Shown here piece after piece: positions 3,691-63,490 of a stretch of 64,000 nucleotides of DNA. Position 1 is the first letter of the stretch. Every line of letters begins with the position of its first letter. Under the pieces are notes generated by a model that was given only the letters and a program-made list of their open reading frames with translations, had not been told where the DNA came from and searched no databases. The stretch is from Coriobacteriia bacterium (GTDB lineage Bacteria > Actinomycetota > Coriobacteriia > WRKU01 > WQUG01). Location: contig WRBC01000008.1 in assembly GCA_009779855.1 (NCBI GenBank), positions 8,615-72,614 of the forward strand, read 5' to 3'. The position numbers and the translations under genes are program-made.

Positions 3691-4519
3691 GGAGCTAAGC
3701 AACCTTAATTCAGGTACTCTGGGCTTTGTTCCAACAATGGGAGCCCTGCATGAAGGACATGTCTCGCTGATTGAGGAATCTGTTCGCCAGTGTGACACGA
3801 CAGTAGTTTCCATATTTGTAAACCCCACTCAATTTGGGGTAGGCGAGGACTTTGATCGTTATCCGCGCACTCTAGAGGCAGATATCATAACAGCAAGGGC
3901 GGCAGGCGCAAATTATATATATGCACCCACAATTAAAGAGGTATACCCTGATTATCCGGAACCTACTTTAGAGAAGAACTCTGATCCAGGGTTACTTGCT
4001 CAAAACTGGGAAGGAAAGTCGCGTCCTGGTCACTTTGAAGGGGTAGTATCTGTTGTGAAAAGATTGTTTGATCTGATCCAGCCAGAAAGGGCTTATTTTG
4101 GAGAAAAGGATTTTCAGCAGTTACGCATAATCGAAGATATGACAGTGAAAATGCAGCTACCCGTGAGAATCGTACGTTGTCCCAGCGTGCGTGATAGCGA
4201 TGGCCTGGCTTTATCAAGCAGAAATCGTTACTTAAGCGCGAAAGACCGAGAGAGTGCTCTAAGCATTTATTCTGCCCTAAGAGTAATGCAGGAGACTATC
4301 TTGCAGAAAAAAAAGACGGATGTGGAAGTATTGCTCGATTTGGCACAGAGCAGGCTAAGTAGAAATATAGACCTAGACTATTTGGCATTAGTAGAAGAGC
4401 AAACCTTGGAGCCTGTTCAGTGGCTAGACTGTGACAATGAGCTGCAGCTACGAGCGATTTTTGCGGGAAAAGTTGGTTCAATTCGACTAATTGACAACAT
4501 AATGCTAGTTACCTCTTAA
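3674..4519 (+). CDS. panC: Pantoate--beta-alanine ligase
   Basis: Contains the VPTMGALHEGHVSL HIGH-like motif of PanC. The start is uncertain: a GTG at 3674 overlaps panB by 17 nt, while the ATG at 3629 would overlap by 62 nt. Confidence 0.8.
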   Translation: MLISTKELSNLNSGTLGFVPTMGALHEGHVSLIEESVRQCDTTVVSIFVNPTQFGVGEDFDRYPRTLEADIITARAAGANYIYAPTIKEVYPDYPEPTLEKNSDPGLLAQNWEGKSRPGHFEGVVSVVKRLFDLIQPERAYFGEKDFQQLRIIEDMTVKMQLPVRIVRCPSVRDSDGLALSSRNRYLSAKDRESALSIYSALRVMQETILQKKKTDVEVLLDLAQSRLSRNIDLDYLALVEEQTLEPVQWLDCDNELQLRAIFAGKVGSIRLIDNIMLVTS

Positions 4520-4527
4520 CAAATTGG

Positions 4528-4620
4528 TTAGTTTAGACTAACATAGATTTTGGTGGTTATTGCCACCATTGTTTTTGTCCCAAAGTTAGTTTAGACTAAC
4601 ATTTAAGTTAGTCTAACAAG
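4528..4620. promoter_or_regulatory. Three tandem DtxR/IdeR-type iron-box-like operators upstream of feoAB
   Basis: TTAGTTTAGACTAACATAG (4528-4546) and TTAGTTTAGACTAACATTT (4586-4604) each match the 19-bp IdeR/DtxR consensus TTAGGTTAGGCTAACCTAA at ~15/19 positions. A third inverted copy, GTTAGTCTAAC, lies at 4606-4616. All sit within ~140 bp of the feoA start. Confidence 0.5.
4551..4577 (+). terminator. Putative rho-independent terminator after panC
   Basis: Hairpin tggtgg-ttattg-ccacca followed by a T-rich tract (ttgtttttg). Confidence 0.4.
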
Positions 4621-4669
4621 TTTCGTCTGATAACGTGCGCGTTCTCAGACCTTCTAGAAGAGGTAAGGT

Positions 4670-4906
4670 ATGACGAGTAAGGTACAGGATTTATATAAGG
4701 TACCAGTTCGCAGAGAGTACACGGTAGTCTCTGTACCGGAAATCGGTCTTTTGCAGGGGCTAGGCATTCGCAGCGGAACAAGAGTTGCCCTGCAAGATCG
4801 GTATGCTTTCGGCGGGCCAGCTCTTCTTAGCATTGAAGATACTTACACGGTTGCGCTAGGTAAAGATGTAGCTTCACAAATAGCTGTTCAGGAGGCTGCC
4901 TCCTGA
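4670..4906 (+). CDS. feoA: Ferrous iron transport protein A
   Basis: 78 aa, SH3-like FeoA, immediately upstream of and translationally coupled to feoB. Confidence 0.75.
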   Translation: MTSKVQDLYKVPVRREYTVVSVPEIGLLQGLGIRSGTRVALQDRYAFGGPALLSIEDTYTVALGKDVASQIAVQEAAS

Positions 4907-4907
4907 T

Positions 4908-6701
4908 ATGAGTAAGTCAAATAAGATAAATCCCCGTGATAAAGTGCTCTTAATGGGCAATCCCAACGTGGGGAAGAGTGTTCTTTTTACCGAGTTCACA
5001 GGTATTCATGCCATTAGCTCGAACTTCGTCGGAACAACAGTGACCTATACTGAAGGACATCTGCCCATCGGCAATAAGGAATACACTCTTATTGATGTGC
5101 CAGGTACGTATTCGCTGCAGTCTACATCGGAAGCCGAGGCTGTTGCAGTGAGTTTTATGCAAAGCGGTGCCCAGGCTATCATTTGCGTTTTAGATGCTAC
5201 TAATCTAGAGCGAAACCTAGTTCTTGCCTTAGAGCTTCAAAGATATAACATCCCTACGGTATATGCTCTAAACCTTACTGATGTAGCAGAGCGTCGCGGC
5301 ATTAAAATCAATGAAAAGCTGCTTGCTCAAGAGTTGGGTGCTCCTGTCATTCCGACAGTTGCTGTTAAGCGAAAAGGTCTTGATGGAATCATTGGTGAAC
5401 TTGACAGTTTACTGTCTGTCACAGAAACCACTGGCAGTGAAGAGGATGAATGTATTGCCTGTAGTAAGTGTTCTCTTTGCCCTGGAGATACAAGTAAATC
5501 AACTACAGGTAAGCCGGAAGACTATCCGCTGAAAGCGAAAGAGATCAGTCGTCGGGTTAGTAAAAAAATAAACTCTAAACCCAGTTTTCTTGATAAATTG
5601 GGTGACGCTAGTGTCAAGCCTTGGCCAGGGATACCCATTGCGTTTTTGGCCATTGCGCTACTTGTTGCTGTGGTTGTCTTTGGTGGACGCATTCTTCGGG
5701 CAGTACTTTTGCTCCCTCTGGTAAATAATATCATCGTTCCCTTTTTTAGAGACTTTTTTGCATCCTTTATCCCGGAAGGTATGCTTCTTAATATCCTAAC
5801 GGGAGAATTTGGAATTTTCGTTATCAGCTTTGAGTGGATATTTGCTCTAATCTTTCCTTATGTGTTGTTCTTCTATATTGCCTTTTCCTTCTTGGAAGAT
5901 TCGGGATACCTACCTAGGATTAGCGTGCTTTTTGACAATGTAATGCGCAGGCTGGGCGTTCAGGGTGGCAGCTTGATTTATGCCATCATGGCCTTCGGCT
6001 GCGCCGTACCCGCAATCATCGGCAGTCGTGCTGCAACATCGCGCAAGGAACGTCTCATCATTACTCTTGCAATTTGCTTTGCTATTCCCTGTATTTCTCA
6101 GTCAGCTGCGGTTATGGCACTTATGGCTGCATATGACTGGTATATGATGCCTTTAATGATTGCTTTTGGATTCTTCCTTTTTGTTGTAGTATCACTAATT
6201 GCTGGCAGGTTTATTAAGGGCAGGGTTGACTCTTTAATTATAGAGGTCCCCAACCTGCTGATTCCCGATGCAAGATCATATGGCAGGAAGCTCCTCATTC
6301 GGATGAGACACTTTCTTAAGGATGCTGAAATCCCTATGATGGCAGCGATTGTATTGGCAGCACTGTTGGCTGAAACGGGCGCGCTCGCCGTTATTGCACG
6401 TGCTGCAGAGCCTTTGGTAAGTCAGTGGCTAGGGATGCCCCGCGAGGCTGTAGTTGCGCTCATATTGGGTATTGTGCGCCGTGAAATGTCAGTGGCACCT
6501 TTACTTGCCCTTAACCTTACCCCATTGCAGGCCTTTGTTGGCGGTGCGGTGTCACTTATGTATATTCCCTGCCTGTCTGTTTTTGCTATTCTCGCCAAAG
6601 AATTTAAGATCAGAATTGCAGTAGCAGTAACTCTGGGCACGATTTTTGTCGCACTCTTTTTAGGAGGAGTCATAAACCACGTTGGGCAACTATTTTTCTA
6701 G
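4908..6701 (+). CDS. feoB: Ferrous iron transport protein B
   Basis: N-terminal G-domain (LMGNPNVGKS, DVPGTYS) followed by the polytopic Gate/nucleoside-recognition membrane domain. A Cys-rich linker (CIACSKCSLCPGD) separates the two. Confidence 0.9.
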   Translation: MSKSNKINPRDKVLLMGNPNVGKSVLFTEFTGIHAISSNFVGTTVTYTEGHLPIGNKEYTLIDVPGTYSLQSTSEAEAVAVSFMQSGAQAIICVLDATNLERNLVLALELQRYNIPTVYALNLTDVAERRGIKINEKLLAQELGAPVIPTVAVKRKGLDGIIGELDSLLSVTETTGSEEDECIACSKCSLCPGDTSKSTTGKPEDYPLKAKEISRRVSKKINSKPSFLDKLGDASVKPWPGIPIAFLAIALLVAVVVFGGRILRAVLLLPLVNNIIVPFFRDFFASFIPEGMLLNILTGEFGIFVISFEWIFALIFPYVLFFYIAFSFLEDSGYLPRISVLFDNVMRRLGVQGGSLIYAIMAFGCAVPAIIGSRAATSRKERLIITLAICFAIPCISQSAAVMALMAAYDWYMMPLMIAFGFFLFVVVSLIAGRFIKGRVDSLIIEVPNLLIPDARSYGRKLLIRMRHFLKDAEIPMMAAIVLAALLAETGALAVIARAAEPLVSQWLGMPREAVVALILGIVRREMSVAPLLALNLTPLQAFVGGAVSLMYIPCLSVFAILAKEFKIRIAVAVTLGTIFVALFLGGVINHVGQLFF

Positions 6702-6711
6702 GAGATAAACA

Positions 6712-7305
6712 ATGCTGAGGTTGATAACAAAGGCTACGCAAAAAATAGAGTACTGGGCACCTAGTACAAAGTTGCTCTACCATATAACTTCCAGGTACTA
6801 CCGCGAAGTGATTGGTAACGAAGTAGATCTTGCGAGTATTACCGCAAATGACGAGGTACTCTTTATCGGTGGAGGTTTTTGTCCCTTTAGCGCAATATTG
6901 CTGCACCAGACAACGGGTGCAAAAATCACAGTTACAGACAACGATTCCGACTGCATTCCTAGGGCGGTCAAAGCAATTAGTCAGCTGGAATTGGGTGACT
7001 GCATTCATATTCAATGCCGCGACGGAGCATGTCCAAACTTTGACCTATCGCAGTTTAGCGTTGTGCACTTCGCACTACAAATCACCCCGTTAAACCAGGT
7101 CTTTGCCGAGGTAGAAAGAAGGGTGAATCCAGGAACAAGACTTCTTGTTCGTAGGCCTAAAAACCATCTAGATAAGATGTACTGTAAGTTTTCAAATGCC
7201 GTGGTGGGCTGTTGTCGTTATGTTCGACATGGGAGTATGAGCAATATTGGGGTGACTCAACTTTACATAAAGCAGAAACCTAGTGTGGCAAGGATTGCTG
7301 CATGA
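6712..7305 (+). CDS. Nicotianamine-synthase-like SAM-dependent (aminocarboxypropyl)transferase-fold protein
   Basis: VLFIGGGFCPFSAILL...KITVTDNDSDCIPRAVKA...CIHIQCRDGAC...FDLSQFSVVHFA follows the NAS/CntL pattern (GSGPLPLTSI, D-x-D, downstream acidic/aromatic). The stop overlaps the next gene in ATGA. Confidence 0.5.
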   Translation: MLRLITKATQKIEYWAPSTKLLYHITSRYYREVIGNEVDLASITANDEVLFIGGGFCPFSAILLHQTTGAKITVTDNDSDCIPRAVKAISQLELGDCIHIQCRDGACPNFDLSQFSVVHFALQITPLNQVFAEVERRVNPGTRLLVRRPKNHLDKMYCKFSNAVVGCCRYVRHGSMSNIGVTQLYIKQKPSVARIAA

Positions 7306-8372
7306 GACAGATGAGTTTACAAAAGAAGCTTTGGTACGGACTTCTTGCGGTTCTTGTCCTATTCGCTTTATCACAGTTTCAGTTAGGTGATTTGTGGCAA
7401 AGCATTACGCGGGTATCGCTCTGGTCTATCGTTTTGCTTGTTGTGCTGCAGGTTGCTACGCAGCTTATGCTGAACGTTCAGTGGTATCAGATAGCAAAGT
7501 TTGCACAGTTAGACATTAGCTTTAGGGATATGCTTCGAATCAATTGTCAGGGGTCAATTATTGACTCCGTCACACCAGGGGTAAAAATTGGCGGGGAAGT
7601 TGTTCGCGCAGTACAGATTAGCCGTGCGGGAAAGTGCAGTGGGGAAGAGGGGGCTGCAATAGTTGCCGTGCAAAAGATAGTTAGTCTGAGCACTTTTATC
7701 TTTGTCAATCTTTTTGTGGTTGGTTATCTTGTGGGAATAGCTCCTTTTCTGCAGGTGCGATATCTGCAGGTTGGGATTTATGGGGTACTGGGGGGATTGC
7801 TACTGCTGTTTGTGGGAGTATTCTTGTTTGCGGACAGACTACTTTTCTTTACCCGGGGAAGAGGGGCTCAGCTTTCCTGCTCATCCCCATCAAAGTGGGC
7901 ACAAATGCGGATAAAAGCTCAAGGTTTCATGATAGTTACACTGTCACAGATTTTACTTTTGCGCGGTAACGTTAAATTGTGTGTATCTTTGCTGGTGCTC
8001 TCATTTTTAGTGTGGCTTATGTATCCGTTGAAGATGTATATACTTATTGCACAGCTTTATCCCGATACTTCAATTGCAGTTATTGCCGCGATTACCTTTA
8101 CGGCTTATCTGGCTGCGCTGATTCCACTATTTCCTGGTGGTTTAGGCGGATTTGAGGGCACAATGGTGACACTTCTTGTAGCAACAGGACTTGCACAAAG
8201 CGGGGCACTAGTGGCTACGATACTTTTTAGGTTCATTACCTTCTGGCTTGTTATGGTATTTAGCTTAGCTTACCTTGCCTTAGATAAGATTGATTTCTCG
8301 AAAATGCGAAGAAGTGAAAGAGCGACTATCGCAAAGGAAGGCAAGATTAAAAGAGGTTATCACTATGCCTGA
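7302..8372 (+). CDS. Flippase-like / lysyl-phosphatidylglycerol-synthase TM-domain family (UPF0104) membrane protein
   Basis: ~8 TM segments. The conserved LRINCQGSIIDSVTPGVKIGGEVVRAVQISRAG block matches the MprF flippase-domain signature (..tPg..GGe..R..). Overlaps both neighbouring genes. Confidence 0.6.
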   Translation: MRQMSLQKKLWYGLLAVLVLFALSQFQLGDLWQSITRVSLWSIVLLVVLQVATQLMLNVQWYQIAKFAQLDISFRDMLRINCQGSIIDSVTPGVKIGGEVVRAVQISRAGKCSGEEGAAIVAVQKIVSLSTFIFVNLFVVGYLVGIAPFLQVRYLQVGIYGVLGGLLLLFVGVFLFADRLLFFTRGRGAQLSCSSPSKWAQMRIKAQGFMIVTLSQILLLRGNVKLCVSLLVLSFLVWLMYPLKMYILIAQLYPDTSIAVIAAITFTAYLAALIPLFPGGLGGFEGTMVTLLVATGLAQSGALVATILFRFITFWLVMVFSLAYLALDKIDFSKMRRSERATIAKEGKIKRGYHYA

Positions 8373-8934
8373 TTATTGGTTCATAAAGCGCATACCAAAC
8401 CTATTGACAGTCTTAAACATGCTACTAGGTCTTTCAGCAATTATTCTAATGATTCGAGGGGGAATCCCTTATATGGAGATCACTATTGCAAGCCTTATCG
8501 CAGTAGGAGGAATTGTAGACTTCTTTGATGGTTATCTTGCACGTAAATGGAATGCAGTCACTGACATGGGTAAGCAACTTGATTCCTTCGCTGACCTGAT
8601 TACTTTTGGTGTTGCCCCTGTATGCTTGCTTTACTTTTTGGCAGCCTATGAACAGTCCCTGTTAATTGTGCTTGTTGCCATTACTTATCCGCTGGCGGGT
8701 ATCTATCGTCTAGCACGATATAACCTCAATGATTTCAAGGATCACTTTATGGGACTTCCGATCACTATAGCGGGCATCTTACTTGCGGCTTATTGTGTCG
8801 GCCACACCTTCTGGTCGCCGCATATTCCACATGCTTTGTGTATTTTCATCACAGTTGTATTTGTACTGTCTTTGTCGGCAGCAATGGTGAGCAGGTTCAG
8901 AGTGAAAAGAGTTCCTGCTTCTTTTGCGGATTAG
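8365..8934 (+). CDS. pssA: CDP-alcohol phosphatidyltransferase (phosphatidylserine-synthase-like)
   Basis: DFFDGYLARKWNAVTDMGKQLDSFADLITFG is the D-G-x2-A-R...G-x3-D-x3-D CDP-OH-P transferase motif. Size and topology are PssA-like. The ATG at 8365 (MPDYWF) overlaps the upstream gene end by 8 nt. Confidence 0.7.
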   Translation: MPDYWFIKRIPNLLTVLNMLLGLSAIILMIRGGIPYMEITIASLIAVGGIVDFFDGYLARKWNAVTDMGKQLDSFADLITFGVAPVCLLYFLAAYEQSLLIVLVAITYPLAGIYRLARYNLNDFKDHFMGLPITIAGILLAAYCVGHTFWSPHIPHALCIFITVVFVLSLSAAMVSRFRVKRVPASFAD

Positions 8935-8945
8935 GATAAAAGGTC

Positions 8946-8980
8946 GACAGCTCGTTTCCCTGGATGAGAAACAAGCTGTC
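8946..8980 (-). terminator. Rho-independent terminator, mainly for catalase on the minus strand
   Basis: 13-bp near-perfect inverted repeat gacagctcgtttc / gaaacaagctgtc. On the minus strand it is followed by a T-rich tract. Confidence 0.5.
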
Positions 8981-9054
8981 AGAATTAGCATAAGTCTAAT
9001 GTTTAGGCTTTATAACTAGACCATAAAGGTAGCTGCAGTAATTCTTGCACATAT

Positions 9055-10572
9055 CTACGTTAAGCAGCTGGTCTCTTTCATGCGATCTGCATGACTCAAG
9101 TGGGAAAGTTCAACAACGCGGCTAAGGTCGAGTTTCAGCGCTTCCGCAAGCTTTGTTCCGTATTCAACGTCTGCCAGGTAGCAATGTGCGGCATGGCGCA
9201 GTTTCACGTTGTCGCTTACGGGACCAATATTAGCTGCAGTATTAGCGATTAGGACTTCTTTTTTATCCTCGGAAATCAGACGGTATAAATCTCCTGCTTG
9301 GTAGAAGGTATTATCAGTCTGATCCTCTTTTGGTTCATAACTGTCCATTGCCCCAGCTAGTTCTAGTGGAGGTTCTTTGTATTCTGGCTGCTCAGCCCAC
9401 TCATTGAAGCTATTCGGTTGGTAATGGGCAGTTGCACCATAATTACCGTCTACCCTCATTTGTCCATCACGGTGATAAGAGTGCACAGGGCATTTTGGTG
9501 CGTTGACAGGAATAAGATTATGGTTAACGCCTAAACGATAACGTTGAGCATCCCCATAAGAAAACAGACGCGCTTGCAATAATTTATCAGGAGACAACCC
9601 TACACCAGGAACAATGTTTGCAGGGTTAAAGGCAGCCTGCTCTACATCTGCAAAGTAATTGTCTGGATTACGGTTCAGTTCGAATGTTCCCACAGGAATC
9701 AGGGGAAAGTCACCTTTGTGCCACACTTTTGTAATATCGAAAGGGTTTTCCCCGTGTTCCTTGGCCTGATCTTCGGTCATTACCTGAATGTAGAAGTCCC
9801 ATTTTGGAAAGTCGCCAGACTCAACACTGTCAAGTAAGTCGCGCTGATGACTTTCGCGGTCATGCCCAACAAGTTCTACTGCTTCCTTGTCAGTTAGGTT
9901 TTTAATTCCTTGACGGGTACGCCAATGATATTTAACCCACACACGCTGATTGTCGGCGTTTATCATGCTGAAAGTATGGCTTCCAAAGCCGTGCATGTGC
10001 CTGTACGTTGCAGGAAGACCCCTGTCTGACATAACGATAGTGACCTGATGTAAGGCTTCAGGTAACATGCTCCAGAAGTCCCAGTTATTTTGAGGGGACC
10101 TCATGTTGGTTTTGGGGTCACGCTTTACCGCATGATTTAGGTCAGGAAAACGTAAGCCATCACGCAGGAAAAATACAGGAGTATTGTTTCCTACCAAATC
10201 CCAGTTGCCTTCCTCTGTGTAGAACTTCAAGGCAAAGCCACGAATATCACGCTCGGCATCTGCTGCACCGCGTTCACCGGCGACAGTAGAGAAGCGTACA
10301 AACATCTCAGTCTCTTTACCAATTTCTTCAAACATTCTTGCTTTTGTGTACTTCGTAATATCGTGTGTGACGGTAAACGTGCCAAAAGCACCAGAGCCTT
10401 TTGCGTGCATTCTTCGCTCAGGAATAACCTCACGATCAAAGTGGGCCAATTTTTCAATAAACCAGGGATTTTGCAGCGTCATGGGACCGCGGTCTCCTGC
10501 GGTCATGGAATTGGTATTATCTGCTACGGGTGCTCCAGCTGCGGTAGTCAGCTTCTTGTCATGATGTTCCAT
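9055..10572 (-). CDS. katA: Monofunctional heme catalase
   Basis: Typical clade-3 catalase core (RERIPERVVHAKG-like [20 protein letters not shown], heme-distal H, proximal Y region [14 protein letters not shown]). ~505 aa from the MEHHDKK start. Confidence 0.9.
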
Positions 10573-10728: not shown

Positions 10729-11184
10729 CTAAGCTTTCTTTTTTCTTGTGGCGACAAAGAAAGCTACTCCGCCTGCTACAAAGAGACCTGCTACTGTTAT
10801 TGCTACGGGAATCCAACCAATCCCTGCTGGATCATCTTCCGCTTCGTCAACAGCAGTTTCAGCCTCTTCCTCAGTGTCTGTGAGGGTATCGTCTAGAGGT
10901 GCGTCAAGGTCCGCATCGAAATCTGGCATGTCTCCAGCAATGGGTTCAATGTCAATAGGGTCGCCGTCAAGAGCAATGTCTTCTCCTAGACCCTCGTCAG
11001 GAAAGATATCTTCAGCTTCTTCACCCTCTGCAAATTCTCTTTCTTCTGCTTCGGCTGCGGCTGCAATATTTGCCGTGAAGGGTGCTGTAAAGTTAGGAGT
11101 AGCGGCGGCCTGCAAAGAAAATAGTCCAGCTGTCATACATAGTGCCAGAGCAAGCACAAATAAGCTACCTTTTTGAACCTTCAT
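10729..11184 (-). CDS. Small secreted acidic protein with a C-terminal membrane anchor
   Basis: Signal peptide (MKVQKGSLFVLALALCMTAGLFSLQA), a very D/E-rich middle, a C-terminal TM helix and a KKKA tail. It lies downstream of the histidine kinase on the same strand. Confidence 0.5.
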   Translation of the reverse strand: MKVQKGSLFVLALALCMTAGLFSLQAAATPNFTAPFTANIAAAAEAEEREFAEGEEAEDIFPDEGLGEDIALDGDPIDIEPIAGDMPDFDADLDAPLDDTLTDTEEEAETAVDEAEDDPAGIGWIPVAITVAGLFVAGGVAFFVATRKKKA

Positions 11185-62815: not shown

Positions 62816-63490
62816 ATGTCGGAACAACTACACCACAACAGAGAAGTGACTGAAAAGGTCTTTCTAAAACTGAGTCTTGCTAGCAAGATAACGTTGGCAC
62901 GTGTGTTATTTATTCCTTTATTTTTGGCGGTGCTTCTGACTAATTGGCCCTTGTTATTGTTTCCCTATTTTGAGCTCGCGTACTCTTTACAGCCGTGGTT
63001 AGCAGCCCTAGTGTTTATCTTGATAGCAGCAACTGATGCTATTGATGGACATGTTGCGAGAAAGCGCAAAGAAGTAACAACCTTTGGAAAGTTTATTGAT
63101 CCTCTTGCTGACAAATTGCTTGTGACGGCAGCCTTGCTTGCCTTAGTGCAAATGGCAGTTTTGCCAGCATGGATAGCTTTCATTATTGTTGCGCGTGAGT
63201 TCATTATTAGTGGATTGCGTATGGTGGCGACAGCAAACGGCGGTATCATAGAGGTTTCTGGTTTAGGAAAACTTAAAACGGTACTGCAAAGTACTGCGAT
63301 TGTTATGTTTATCGTAAAAGACCATACAGGGATTCTGGGCATCCCTTCTTTACCCTTGATAGAGCAAGGTGTATCTCTTTTGGCATGGGCAGTGATGCTG
63401 GCAGCTGTGGCAATAACAGTTGTATCTTTATGGGACTACTACAAAAAGGTAAGCGAGTTCTTAAATGGTCCCTGGACGAAGGCAGATTGA
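62816..63490 (+). CDS. pgsA: CDP-diacylglycerol--glycerol-3-phosphate 3-phosphatidyltransferase
   Basis: ATDAIDGHVARKRKEVTTFGKFIDPLADKLL CDP-OH-P motif. PgsA size, with an N-terminal extra TM helix. Confidence 0.75.
   Translation: MSEQLHHNREVTEKVFLKLSLASKITLARVLFIPLFLAVLLTNWPLLLFPYFELAYSLQPWLAALVFILIAATDAIDGHVARKRKEVTTFGKFIDPLADKLLVTAALLALVQMAVLPAWIAFIIVAREFIISGLRMVATANGGIIEVSGLGKLKTVLQSTAIVMFIVKDHTGILGIPSLPLIEQGVSLLAWAVMLAAVAITVVSLWDYYKKVSEFLNGPWTKAD

Follow-up and report, generated by a model that had tools for sequence, protein, structure and literature searches.

A conserved ferrous-iron transport gene cassette encoding a nicotianamine synthase-like enzyme, a stand-alone flippase domain and a probable phosphatidylserine synthase

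Among the closest described systems to the one reported here are the Cnt opine-metallophore systems (CntL, CntM, the exporter CntE and the importer CntABCDF; staphylopine, pseudopaline and yersinopine), in which a nicotianamine synthase (NAS)-type enzyme that uses S-adenosylmethionine (SAM) is likewise encoded in a metal-repressed operon with an importer and a membrane protein that carries the product outward. The NAS/CntL chemistry acts on α-amines, the acceptor being glutamate for MtNAS and histidine for CntL (review PMC10491745). Here we describe a gene cassette in which a short NAS/CntL-type enzyme, a stand-alone flippase domain and a phospholipid head-group synthase are encoded directly downstream of the ferrous-iron transport genes feoA and feoB. 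We found it in a 64,000-nucleotide stretch of the metagenome-assembled genome (MAG) of a Coriobacteriia bacterium (assembly GCA_009779855.1, contig WRBC01000008.1), which we call the window and whose positions are used below.

Feo is the most widespread ferrous-iron importer, and how it acquires Fe2+ and passes it on is a long-standing question; FeoA and FeoC are, to our knowledge, the sole accessory proteins known for it. In a broad phylogenomic study of Feo (PMC8749426), no methyltransferase, nicotianamine, flippase or phosphatidyl-transferase partner is mentioned. Literature searches on feoB with nicotianamine synthase or phosphatidyltransferase, on aminocarboxypropyl lipids and flippases, on nicotianamine-like metallophores and on Feo evolution returned no description of the cassette. 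It thus appears to be undescribed, and none of the closest known systems has its composition.

A conserved five-gene Feo cassette

The three genes downstream of feoAB lie on the + strand and overlap one another. The first open reading frame (ORF1, here NASL; 6712–7305, 197 aa, locus tag FWE48_01305 in the source MAG) shares the ATGA at 7302–7305 between its stop codon and the start codon of ORF2 (PplT; 7302–8372, 356 aa), which in turn overlaps ORF3 (PssA; 8365–8934, 189 aa from its ATG) by 8 nt at 8365–8372, with an AAGAGG ribosome-binding site ahead. Both overlaps, which a preliminary description of this DNA had reported, were read directly in the sequence. Upstream on the same strand, feoA (4670–4906, 78 aa; Pfam FeoA PF04023, 35 bits) ends 1 nt before feoB (4908–6701, 597 aa; TIGR00437, 314.1 bits, marginally below the cut-off of 315.65), and the 10-nt gap between feoB and ORF1 contains an AGGAG ribosome-binding site. 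Because these genes are packed or overlapping and a 16-bp hairpin (8945–8981) lies 3' of ORF3, between it and a convergent catalase gene, feoA, feoB, ORF1, ORF2 and ORF3 look like a single transcription unit. The hairpin came from a terminator scan that scored it on the − strand, and the + strand of its stem has no T-tail; it is the probable end of the operon.

For a synteny survey we took one genome per GTDB species, which gave 80 loci, or 81 with the window, and annotated them with hidden Markov models (HMMs) built from the window proteins. FeoB, NASL, PplT and PssA occurred together at 55 of the 81 loci, and at 11 more PssA was missing though the contig had room for it (these include the fusion locus L064, described below). 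FeoB was accompanied by NASL only at 4 loci, NASL occurred without FeoB at 3, as second copies in Defluviitaleaceae MAGs, and the remaining 8 were interrupted by contig ends. FeoB lay directly upstream of NASL at 75 of 79 informative loci, and PplT followed NASL with overlapping stop and start codons at 66 of about 70. Metagenomic contigs with ORF1 homologues all carried the order FeoA-FeoB-NASL-PplT-(PssA) amid unrelated flanks. As 55 species-representative genomes share this order although their flanks are unrelated, the arrangement of the three genes is far beyond chance.

These results bear out the expected co-conservation of ORF1 to ORF3 in relatives and at the same time redraw the unit. 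The preliminary description had it begin at 6712, as three genes downstream of feoAB; the adjacency stands, whereas feoA and feoB belong to the same conserved cassette, and no association is stronger than the one with feoAB, which is not incidental. The unit is therefore a five-gene Feo cassette, and its lipid genes are the more dispensable part, because the NAS-like gene is also found beside FeoAB without them. Unbiased clustering of the unlabelled flanking ORFs at the 81 loci, in search of a sixth conserved gene, recovered generic ABC ATPases only (12 loci). In the reciprocal direction, starting from the approximately 120 best ORF2 homologues, all of which are stand-alone PF03706 proteins, all three loci sampled held the same cassette: those of the cultured Proteiniborus sp. 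DW1, of GCA_900198705.1 and of a Chitinivibrionia MAG with a Fur gene upstream.

The bacterial hosts are Oscillospiraceae, Defluviitaleaceae, Lachnospiraceae, Tissierellia, Christensenellales, Caldicoprobacterales and other Bacillota of termite guts and anaerobic digesters, together with Treponema and other spirochaetes, Chitinivibrionia and the Coriobacteriia MAG of the window; the archaeal hosts are two cultured species, Methanimicrococcus hongohii and M. hacksteinii, which with Proteiniborus sp. DW1 provide cultured hosts. All are strict anaerobes. The family is mainly one of Bacillota rather than of Actinobacteria, so that the actinobacterial focus first given to it was misplaced. The five window proteins are each closest to versions from termite-gut Bacillota (FeoB identity 69–71%), and from locus to locus the five show co-varying identities (rho 0.53–0.78). 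On these grounds the sequences point to inheritance of the cassette as a unit, and horizontal transfer from termite-gut Bacillota is probably how the whole of it came into the Coriobacteriia genome.

Some loci depart from the common pattern in their own ways. On the M. hongohii Hf6 chromosome, a transposase-like ORF of 230 aa (L068, 5275–5967), which we take to resemble IS1595-type transposases, lies immediately upstream of feoB, and FeoA is a 50-aa remnant; in M. hacksteinii (L070) feoA is intact. Two of the second NASL copies without Feo genes, in Defluviitaleaceae MAGs, were inspected (L028, 4578–9400; L025, 8001–9162): one comes after DUF4198 genes, presumably of the kind that carry an annotation as periplasmic components of nickel/cobalt uptake, and a flippase gene is convergent with it; after the other comes a DtxR-family gene. 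In L034, what seemed to be a FecCD-type transporter upstream of the NASL copy without Feo genes was rejected, the genes being glycosyltransferases.

Predicted activities and a proposed mechanism

ORF1 carries the motif FIGGGFCPFSAILL at aa 51–64 and D76-N-D78, as noted in the preliminary description; the acidic C-terminal motif also claimed there is absent, the C-terminus being KQKPSVARIAA. Its score against Pfam NAS (PF03059) was marginal, 27.3 bits for a gathering score of 27.1, and most of its homologues carry a precomputed PF03059 match; against the CntL equivalog model NF033601 it reached 23.7 bits, below the cut-off of 350. A profile of 35 ORF1 homologues searched against all Protein Data Bank (PDB) sequences gave MtNAS at E=5e-13, CntL at 2e-8 and the best methyltransferase at about 4e-3. 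The AlphaFold model of ORF1 (mean predicted local distance difference test score, pLDDT, 84.9) had MtNAS at Foldseek ranks 1–4, with template-modelling scores of 0.72–0.78, and its helices before the Rossmann domain superposed on MtNAS only (183 aligned residues versus about 150). The alignment begins at about residue 78 of MtNAS, so that the helical domain at the N-terminus, by which the acceptor chamber is closed, is absent, and the whole NASL family is 165–220 aa long. We conclude that ORF1, as judged by its sequence and modelled fold, is a truncated member of the NAS/CntL superfamily and, by analogy with its relatives, a predicted 3-amino-3-carboxypropyl (ACP) transferase. The subfamily comprises 1306 clusters at 50% identity with E<=1e-3 and 657 with E<=1e-10, and in this way the NAS/CntL family is widened by a short, cap-less subfamily of more than 600 sequence clusters.

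Conservation was scored in 220 relatives, made up of the 81 loci and 139 cluster representatives. Y30 (100% kept), E37 (99%) and R147 (100%) align to the catalytic Tyr107, to Glu114 and to Arg221 of MtNAS, respectively; P58 (100%) is part of the NAS-type GxGxxP motif, and D76 (99%) is the ribose-binding acid. E13 (98%) is aligned by HMMER to MtNAS Glu90, in the same helix as Glu81, and together with D47 and Q123 is among the family-specific invariant residues. The catalytic roles of Glu81 and Tyr107 of MtNAS, with their counterparts Glu84 in CntL and Glu77 and Tyr106 in AtNAS1, have been described (PMC10491745, PMC10248798). If ORF1 were instead an ordinary SAM-dependent methyltransferase, for example one that N-methylates the head groups of phosphatidylserine (PS) or phosphatidylethanolamine (PE), or that acts on a Feo component as a methylating enzyme, the purpose of the cassette would be membrane remodelling under metal limitation and no chelator would be made. 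We consider this improbable: the sequence profiles favour MtNAS and CntL by 5–9 orders of magnitude, the N-terminal helices fit MtNAS alone, and the equivalents of Tyr107, Glu114 and Arg221 and the GxGxxP motif are invariant. The assignment to NAS rather than to methyltransferases or spermidine synthases, made at the outset from the letters of the DNA, is therefore upheld by far better profile and fold matches to NAS/CntL.

A Cys/His metal site in NASL (C57, C81, H119, H173) was considered and dropped, as these residues are not conserved across the 220 relatives. About one third of NASL homologues have a variable C-terminal tail of 15–30 aa with a conserved H/N-E-E/D-K motif; the tails end in small hydrophobic residues (...AA, ...VAA, ...IAV), and ORF1 of the window has a short version (IAA). 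Plant NAS enzymes have autoinhibitory C-termini.

ORF2 matched PF03706 (LPG_synthase_TM) over aa 13–320 with 122.3 bits (threshold 33.4) and TIGR00374 with 98 bits (threshold 43.2), and carries the flippase block TPGVKIGGEVVR at aa 91–102. The model for MprF proper, NF033480, gave 46.7 bits for a cut-off of 600 and aligned at model positions 190–300 only. The protein ends after the transmembrane domain, with no C-terminal aminoacyl-phosphatidylglycerol synthase (GNAT) domain, and thus the reading of ORF2 as a flippase domain free of an aminoacyl-transferase proved correct. A phmmer search of ORF2 against PDB sequences gave no match. E285 (in GGFEG) and R310 (in FRFITFW), 25 residues apart and each kept in 97% of 71 cassette PplTs, match by motif and spacing the membrane-embedded Glu280-Arg304 gate of RtMprF (PMC8131360), with its YRxxY-like motif. 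A general role in lipid translocation has been proposed for stand-alone PplT/YbhN proteins, which in Escherichia coli are linked to clsB (preprint 10.1101/2022.03.11.483950). In the public annotation ORF2 (P0199, 301 aa) starts 55 codons 3' of the start in the ATGA overlap (7302–7466). The long form is probably correct and the deposited one truncated, because the Pfam model aligns from residue 13 and an overlap with the NASL stop codon is likewise seen in the homologues.

The assignment of ORF3 as a CDP-alcohol phosphatidyltransferase (Pfam CDP-OH_P_transf, 78 bits) could be confirmed and made more specific. Its DxxDGxxAR(x8)GxxxDxxxD motif is intact (D52...D77), as in 52 of 55 cassette homologues. 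ORF3 scored 111.4 bits against TIGR00473 pssA (cut-off 107) and 52.9 against pgsA, with PIS and PCS also behind pssA, and pssA was the top model for all 56 cassette homologues; the ORF3-family profile matched MjPSS at E=1e-26 and PgsA at 5e-8 among PDB sequences. The catalytic serine-site residues of MjPSS are D62, S63, D66, R101, R104 and F105, and the corresponding positions are kept in the ORF3 family (D73 in 56/56, S74 in 55/56, D77 in 56/56, R115 in 56/56, R118 in 54/56 and Y/F119 in 50/56). Since the pssA cut-off is passed, MjPSS is the best profile match and the serine site is conserved, ORF3 is very probably a genuine CDP-diacylglycerol--serine O-phosphatidyltransferase, that is, a PS synthase. 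As the preliminary description stated, a separate pgsA lies at 62816–63490 (TIGR00560, 144 bits for a cut-off of 109).

The pssA equivalog score and the proposed general function of PplT, with its E. coli link to clsB, are what one would expect if the three genes were housekeeping phospholipid genes, for plain PS/PE synthesis and general flipping, that merely adjoin feoAB. This we find hardly credible: the five-gene order recurs across phyla and in archaea with unrelated flanks, the five proteins co-vary in identity and were apparently transferred together, fusions tie NASL to FeoA, and no psd was found in the cassette or its conserved flanks at the 81 loci. ORF3 is a specialised cassette gene and not an obvious housekeeping pssA.

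Natural fusions connect several of the partners. A protein of 592 aa as called (P0102; L094, 6001–7779, and L095, 2435–4213, from the high-GC assembly GCA_003554375.1) has the order NASL-NASL-FeoA; it is encoded directly upstream of FeoB and has no lipid genes in its surroundings, and its open frame runs about 200 aa further upstream. In L064, PplT is fused to the CDP-OH_P_transf domain of the PS synthase. The order in L008 is NASL, a fusion of CDP-OH_P_transf with a radical-SAM/SPASM domain (7545–9365, 606 aa), FeoA-FeoB and a FecCD-type ABC system, with no flippase gene. Long ORFs in L078 and L033 that had the appearance of fusions were rejected as ORF-calling artefacts in other reading frames.

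From these assignments we propose, tentatively and with somewhat less than even confidence, that feoA-feoB-nasL-pplT-pssA is a metal-repressed operon that couples Fe2+ import to the making and surface display of a chelating phospholipid. PssA would form PS on the inner leaflet, and NASL would move the 3-amino-3-carboxypropyl group of SAM onto the α-amine of the PS head group with release of methylthioadenosine, in the same reaction that MtNAS carries out on glutamate and CntL on histidine. The missing cap domain would leave the acceptor site open. The product would have a nicotianamine-like aminocarboxylate head group with one or possibly two ACP units, and the tandem NASL domains of P0102 could correspond to two successive additions. 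PplT would flip the resulting lipid across into the outer leaflet, where the anchored ligand would capture Fe2+ (possibly Mn2+) and pass Fe2+ to FeoB. Methanosarcinales archaea contain archaetidylserine, and where the host already makes (archaetidyl)serine lipids pssA would be dispensable, which fits its absence from the archaeal and spirochaete cassettes. The chemical hypothesis is a concrete one, as aminocarboxypropylated PS would have the mass of PS +101.048 Da (C4H7NO2). An aminocarboxypropylated phospholipid or lipid-linked metallophore, suggested when the locus was first described, is still the best model, with a chemistry that would follow entirely from that of the relatives.

Several observations weigh against this proposal. 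The catalytic Glu81 of MtNAS has no clear counterpart, since HMMER places it opposite the non-conserved L4 of ORF1. All characterised relatives (NAS, MtNAS, CntL) use soluble amino acids, the NASL-NASL-FeoA fusion pairs NASL with a cytoplasmic Feo partner, loci with FeoAB and NASL only exist, and no NASL::PplT or NASL::PssA fusion was found among the approximately 120 best ORF2 homologues. The last four points favour the main alternative, in which NASL makes a soluble nicotianamine-like or ACP-amino-acid ligand, acting as a cytoplasmic Fe2+ acceptor or buffer for FeoB or being secreted, while PssA and PplT act separately to enrich anionic PS in the outer leaflet and so attract cations or tune FeoB. 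We think such a soluble product unlikely, although it deserves serious weight. It does not readily account for the overlap of the PplT start with the NASL stop at nearly all informative loci, NASL lacks the N-terminal domain that in MtNAS encloses a small-molecule chamber, and no exporter, CntM-like opine dehydrogenase or ligand importer was conserved in or around the cassette at the 81 loci.

Operators and neighbouring sequences

Upstream of feoA, a repeat finder located a palindromic operator of the DtxR/IdeR type (GTTAGTTTAGACTAAC-like) in three copies, at 4527–4544, 4585–4602 and 4602–4619, the best of which differs from the 19-mer TTAGGTTAGCCTAACCTAA by 4 mismatches. The first of these boxes is upstream of a hairpin (4551–4568) that resembles a terminator and is probably that of panC. 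DtxR-box-like sites (<=6 mismatches) were present upstream of feoA at 33 of 60 related loci and at none of 60 coding controls, a gap that intergenic base composition may inflate somewhat. At about 25 loci the cassette is flanked by genes of the DtxR/MntR family, none attaining an equivalog cut-off, and an HMM search of the whole 64-kb window found no DtxR-family gene despite the three operator copies. An Rfam scan of 4300–9200 for riboswitches and small RNAs gave sub-threshold noise only.

FeoA and FeoB are encoded here in one operon, and the FeoB proteins of relatives have FeoB_N and Gate domains. In the segment that links its G-domain to its membrane domain, FeoB of the window has the Cys-rich sequence CIACSKCSLC (CxxCxxCxxC; aa 182–191, 5451–5480), and most cassette FeoBs have CxxCxxC(xxC) in the same position, for example CSNCSSCPGC, with about a dozen lacking it. 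Judged from its sequence, this motif could serve to bind a metal or Fe-S, in which it would somewhat resemble the cysteine-containing FeoC proteins. Between the catalase gene and a two-component system, on the − strand, a 151-aa ORF (10729–11184) has a signal-peptide-like N-terminus, an extremely acidic middle rich in Asp and Glu and, at the C-terminus, a membrane anchor that ends in RKKKA; no NCBIfam match was obtained for it.

Comparison with known systems

The best sequence and structure match of ORF1, MtNAS (PDB 3FPE/3FPF), and the plant NAS enzymes share with it the equivalents of Tyr107, Glu114 and Arg221 and the GxGxxP motif. ORF1 differs from MtNAS in lacking the N-terminal domain, in its family-specific E13, D47 and Q123, and in a context of Feo and lipid genes. 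For the transfer of a SAM-derived 3-amino-3-carboxypropyl group to a membrane lipid there is a precedent in the BtaA/BtaB betaine-lipid pathway; BtaA, however, has no sequence kinship to NAS-type enzymes, O-alkylates diacylglycerol and has a role in phosphate sparing rather than in metal uptake. If the proposal is correct, NAS-type enzymes would gain their first lipid acceptor.

With MprF the cassette shares the pairing of a head-group-modifying activity with a PF03706 flippase domain and a conserved Glu-Arg gate, and the PplT::PS-synthase fusion of L064 mirrors the synthase-flippase fusion of MprF. In contrast to MprF, there is no tRNA-dependent GNAT domain, the predicted reaction would use SAM on PS rather than aminoacyl-tRNA on phosphatidylglycerol, and the role would be metal uptake rather than resistance to cationic peptides. 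The E. coli ybhP-clsB-ybhN operon likewise co-encodes a stand-alone PplT with a phospholipid synthase (10.1101/2022.03.11.483950), but there the synthase is a phospholipase D-type cardiolipin synthase, and neither a SAM enzyme nor a link to a transporter is present. PplT flippases are poorly understood; the modified lipid would be a candidate natural substrate for them and, if confirmed, the first physiological substrate of a stand-alone member.

As to Feo itself, the FeoA and FeoB of the cassette are typical of the canonical FeoA/FeoB/FeoC system, in which small cytoplasmic accessory proteins are a known theme. Through the cassette, Feo in strict anaerobes of guts and digesters acquires three conserved partners that are enzymes or membrane proteins, and FeoB would gain a ligand-assisted capture step if the proposal holds. 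Fe(II) in guts and digesters is often locked up by sulfide. It is possible, though we regard it as doubtful, that the cassette specifies the first membrane-anchored ferrous-iron metallophore, in which the amine of PS or archaetidylserine is extended by SAM-derived ACP units and the lipid is displayed by PplT to feed Fe2+ to FeoB.

Set against the Cnt systems, the cassette has neither the opine dehydrogenase CntM nor CntK, and ORF1 is about 80 aa shorter than CntL and fails the CntL equivalog model. Its importer is FeoAB, which takes free Fe2+, and not a system of the ABC or TonB kind that takes up a metal-ligand complex; in the place of the exporter it has a lipid-flippase domain, accompanied by a PS synthase, which points to a lipid-bound product. 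The coupling of NAS-type metallophore biosynthesis to a metal importer is a known principle, within which NASL, PplT and PssA would be new accessory components of Feo, and the chance is substantial that the product, as an Fe(II) chelator anchored in a lipid, would be new in kind.

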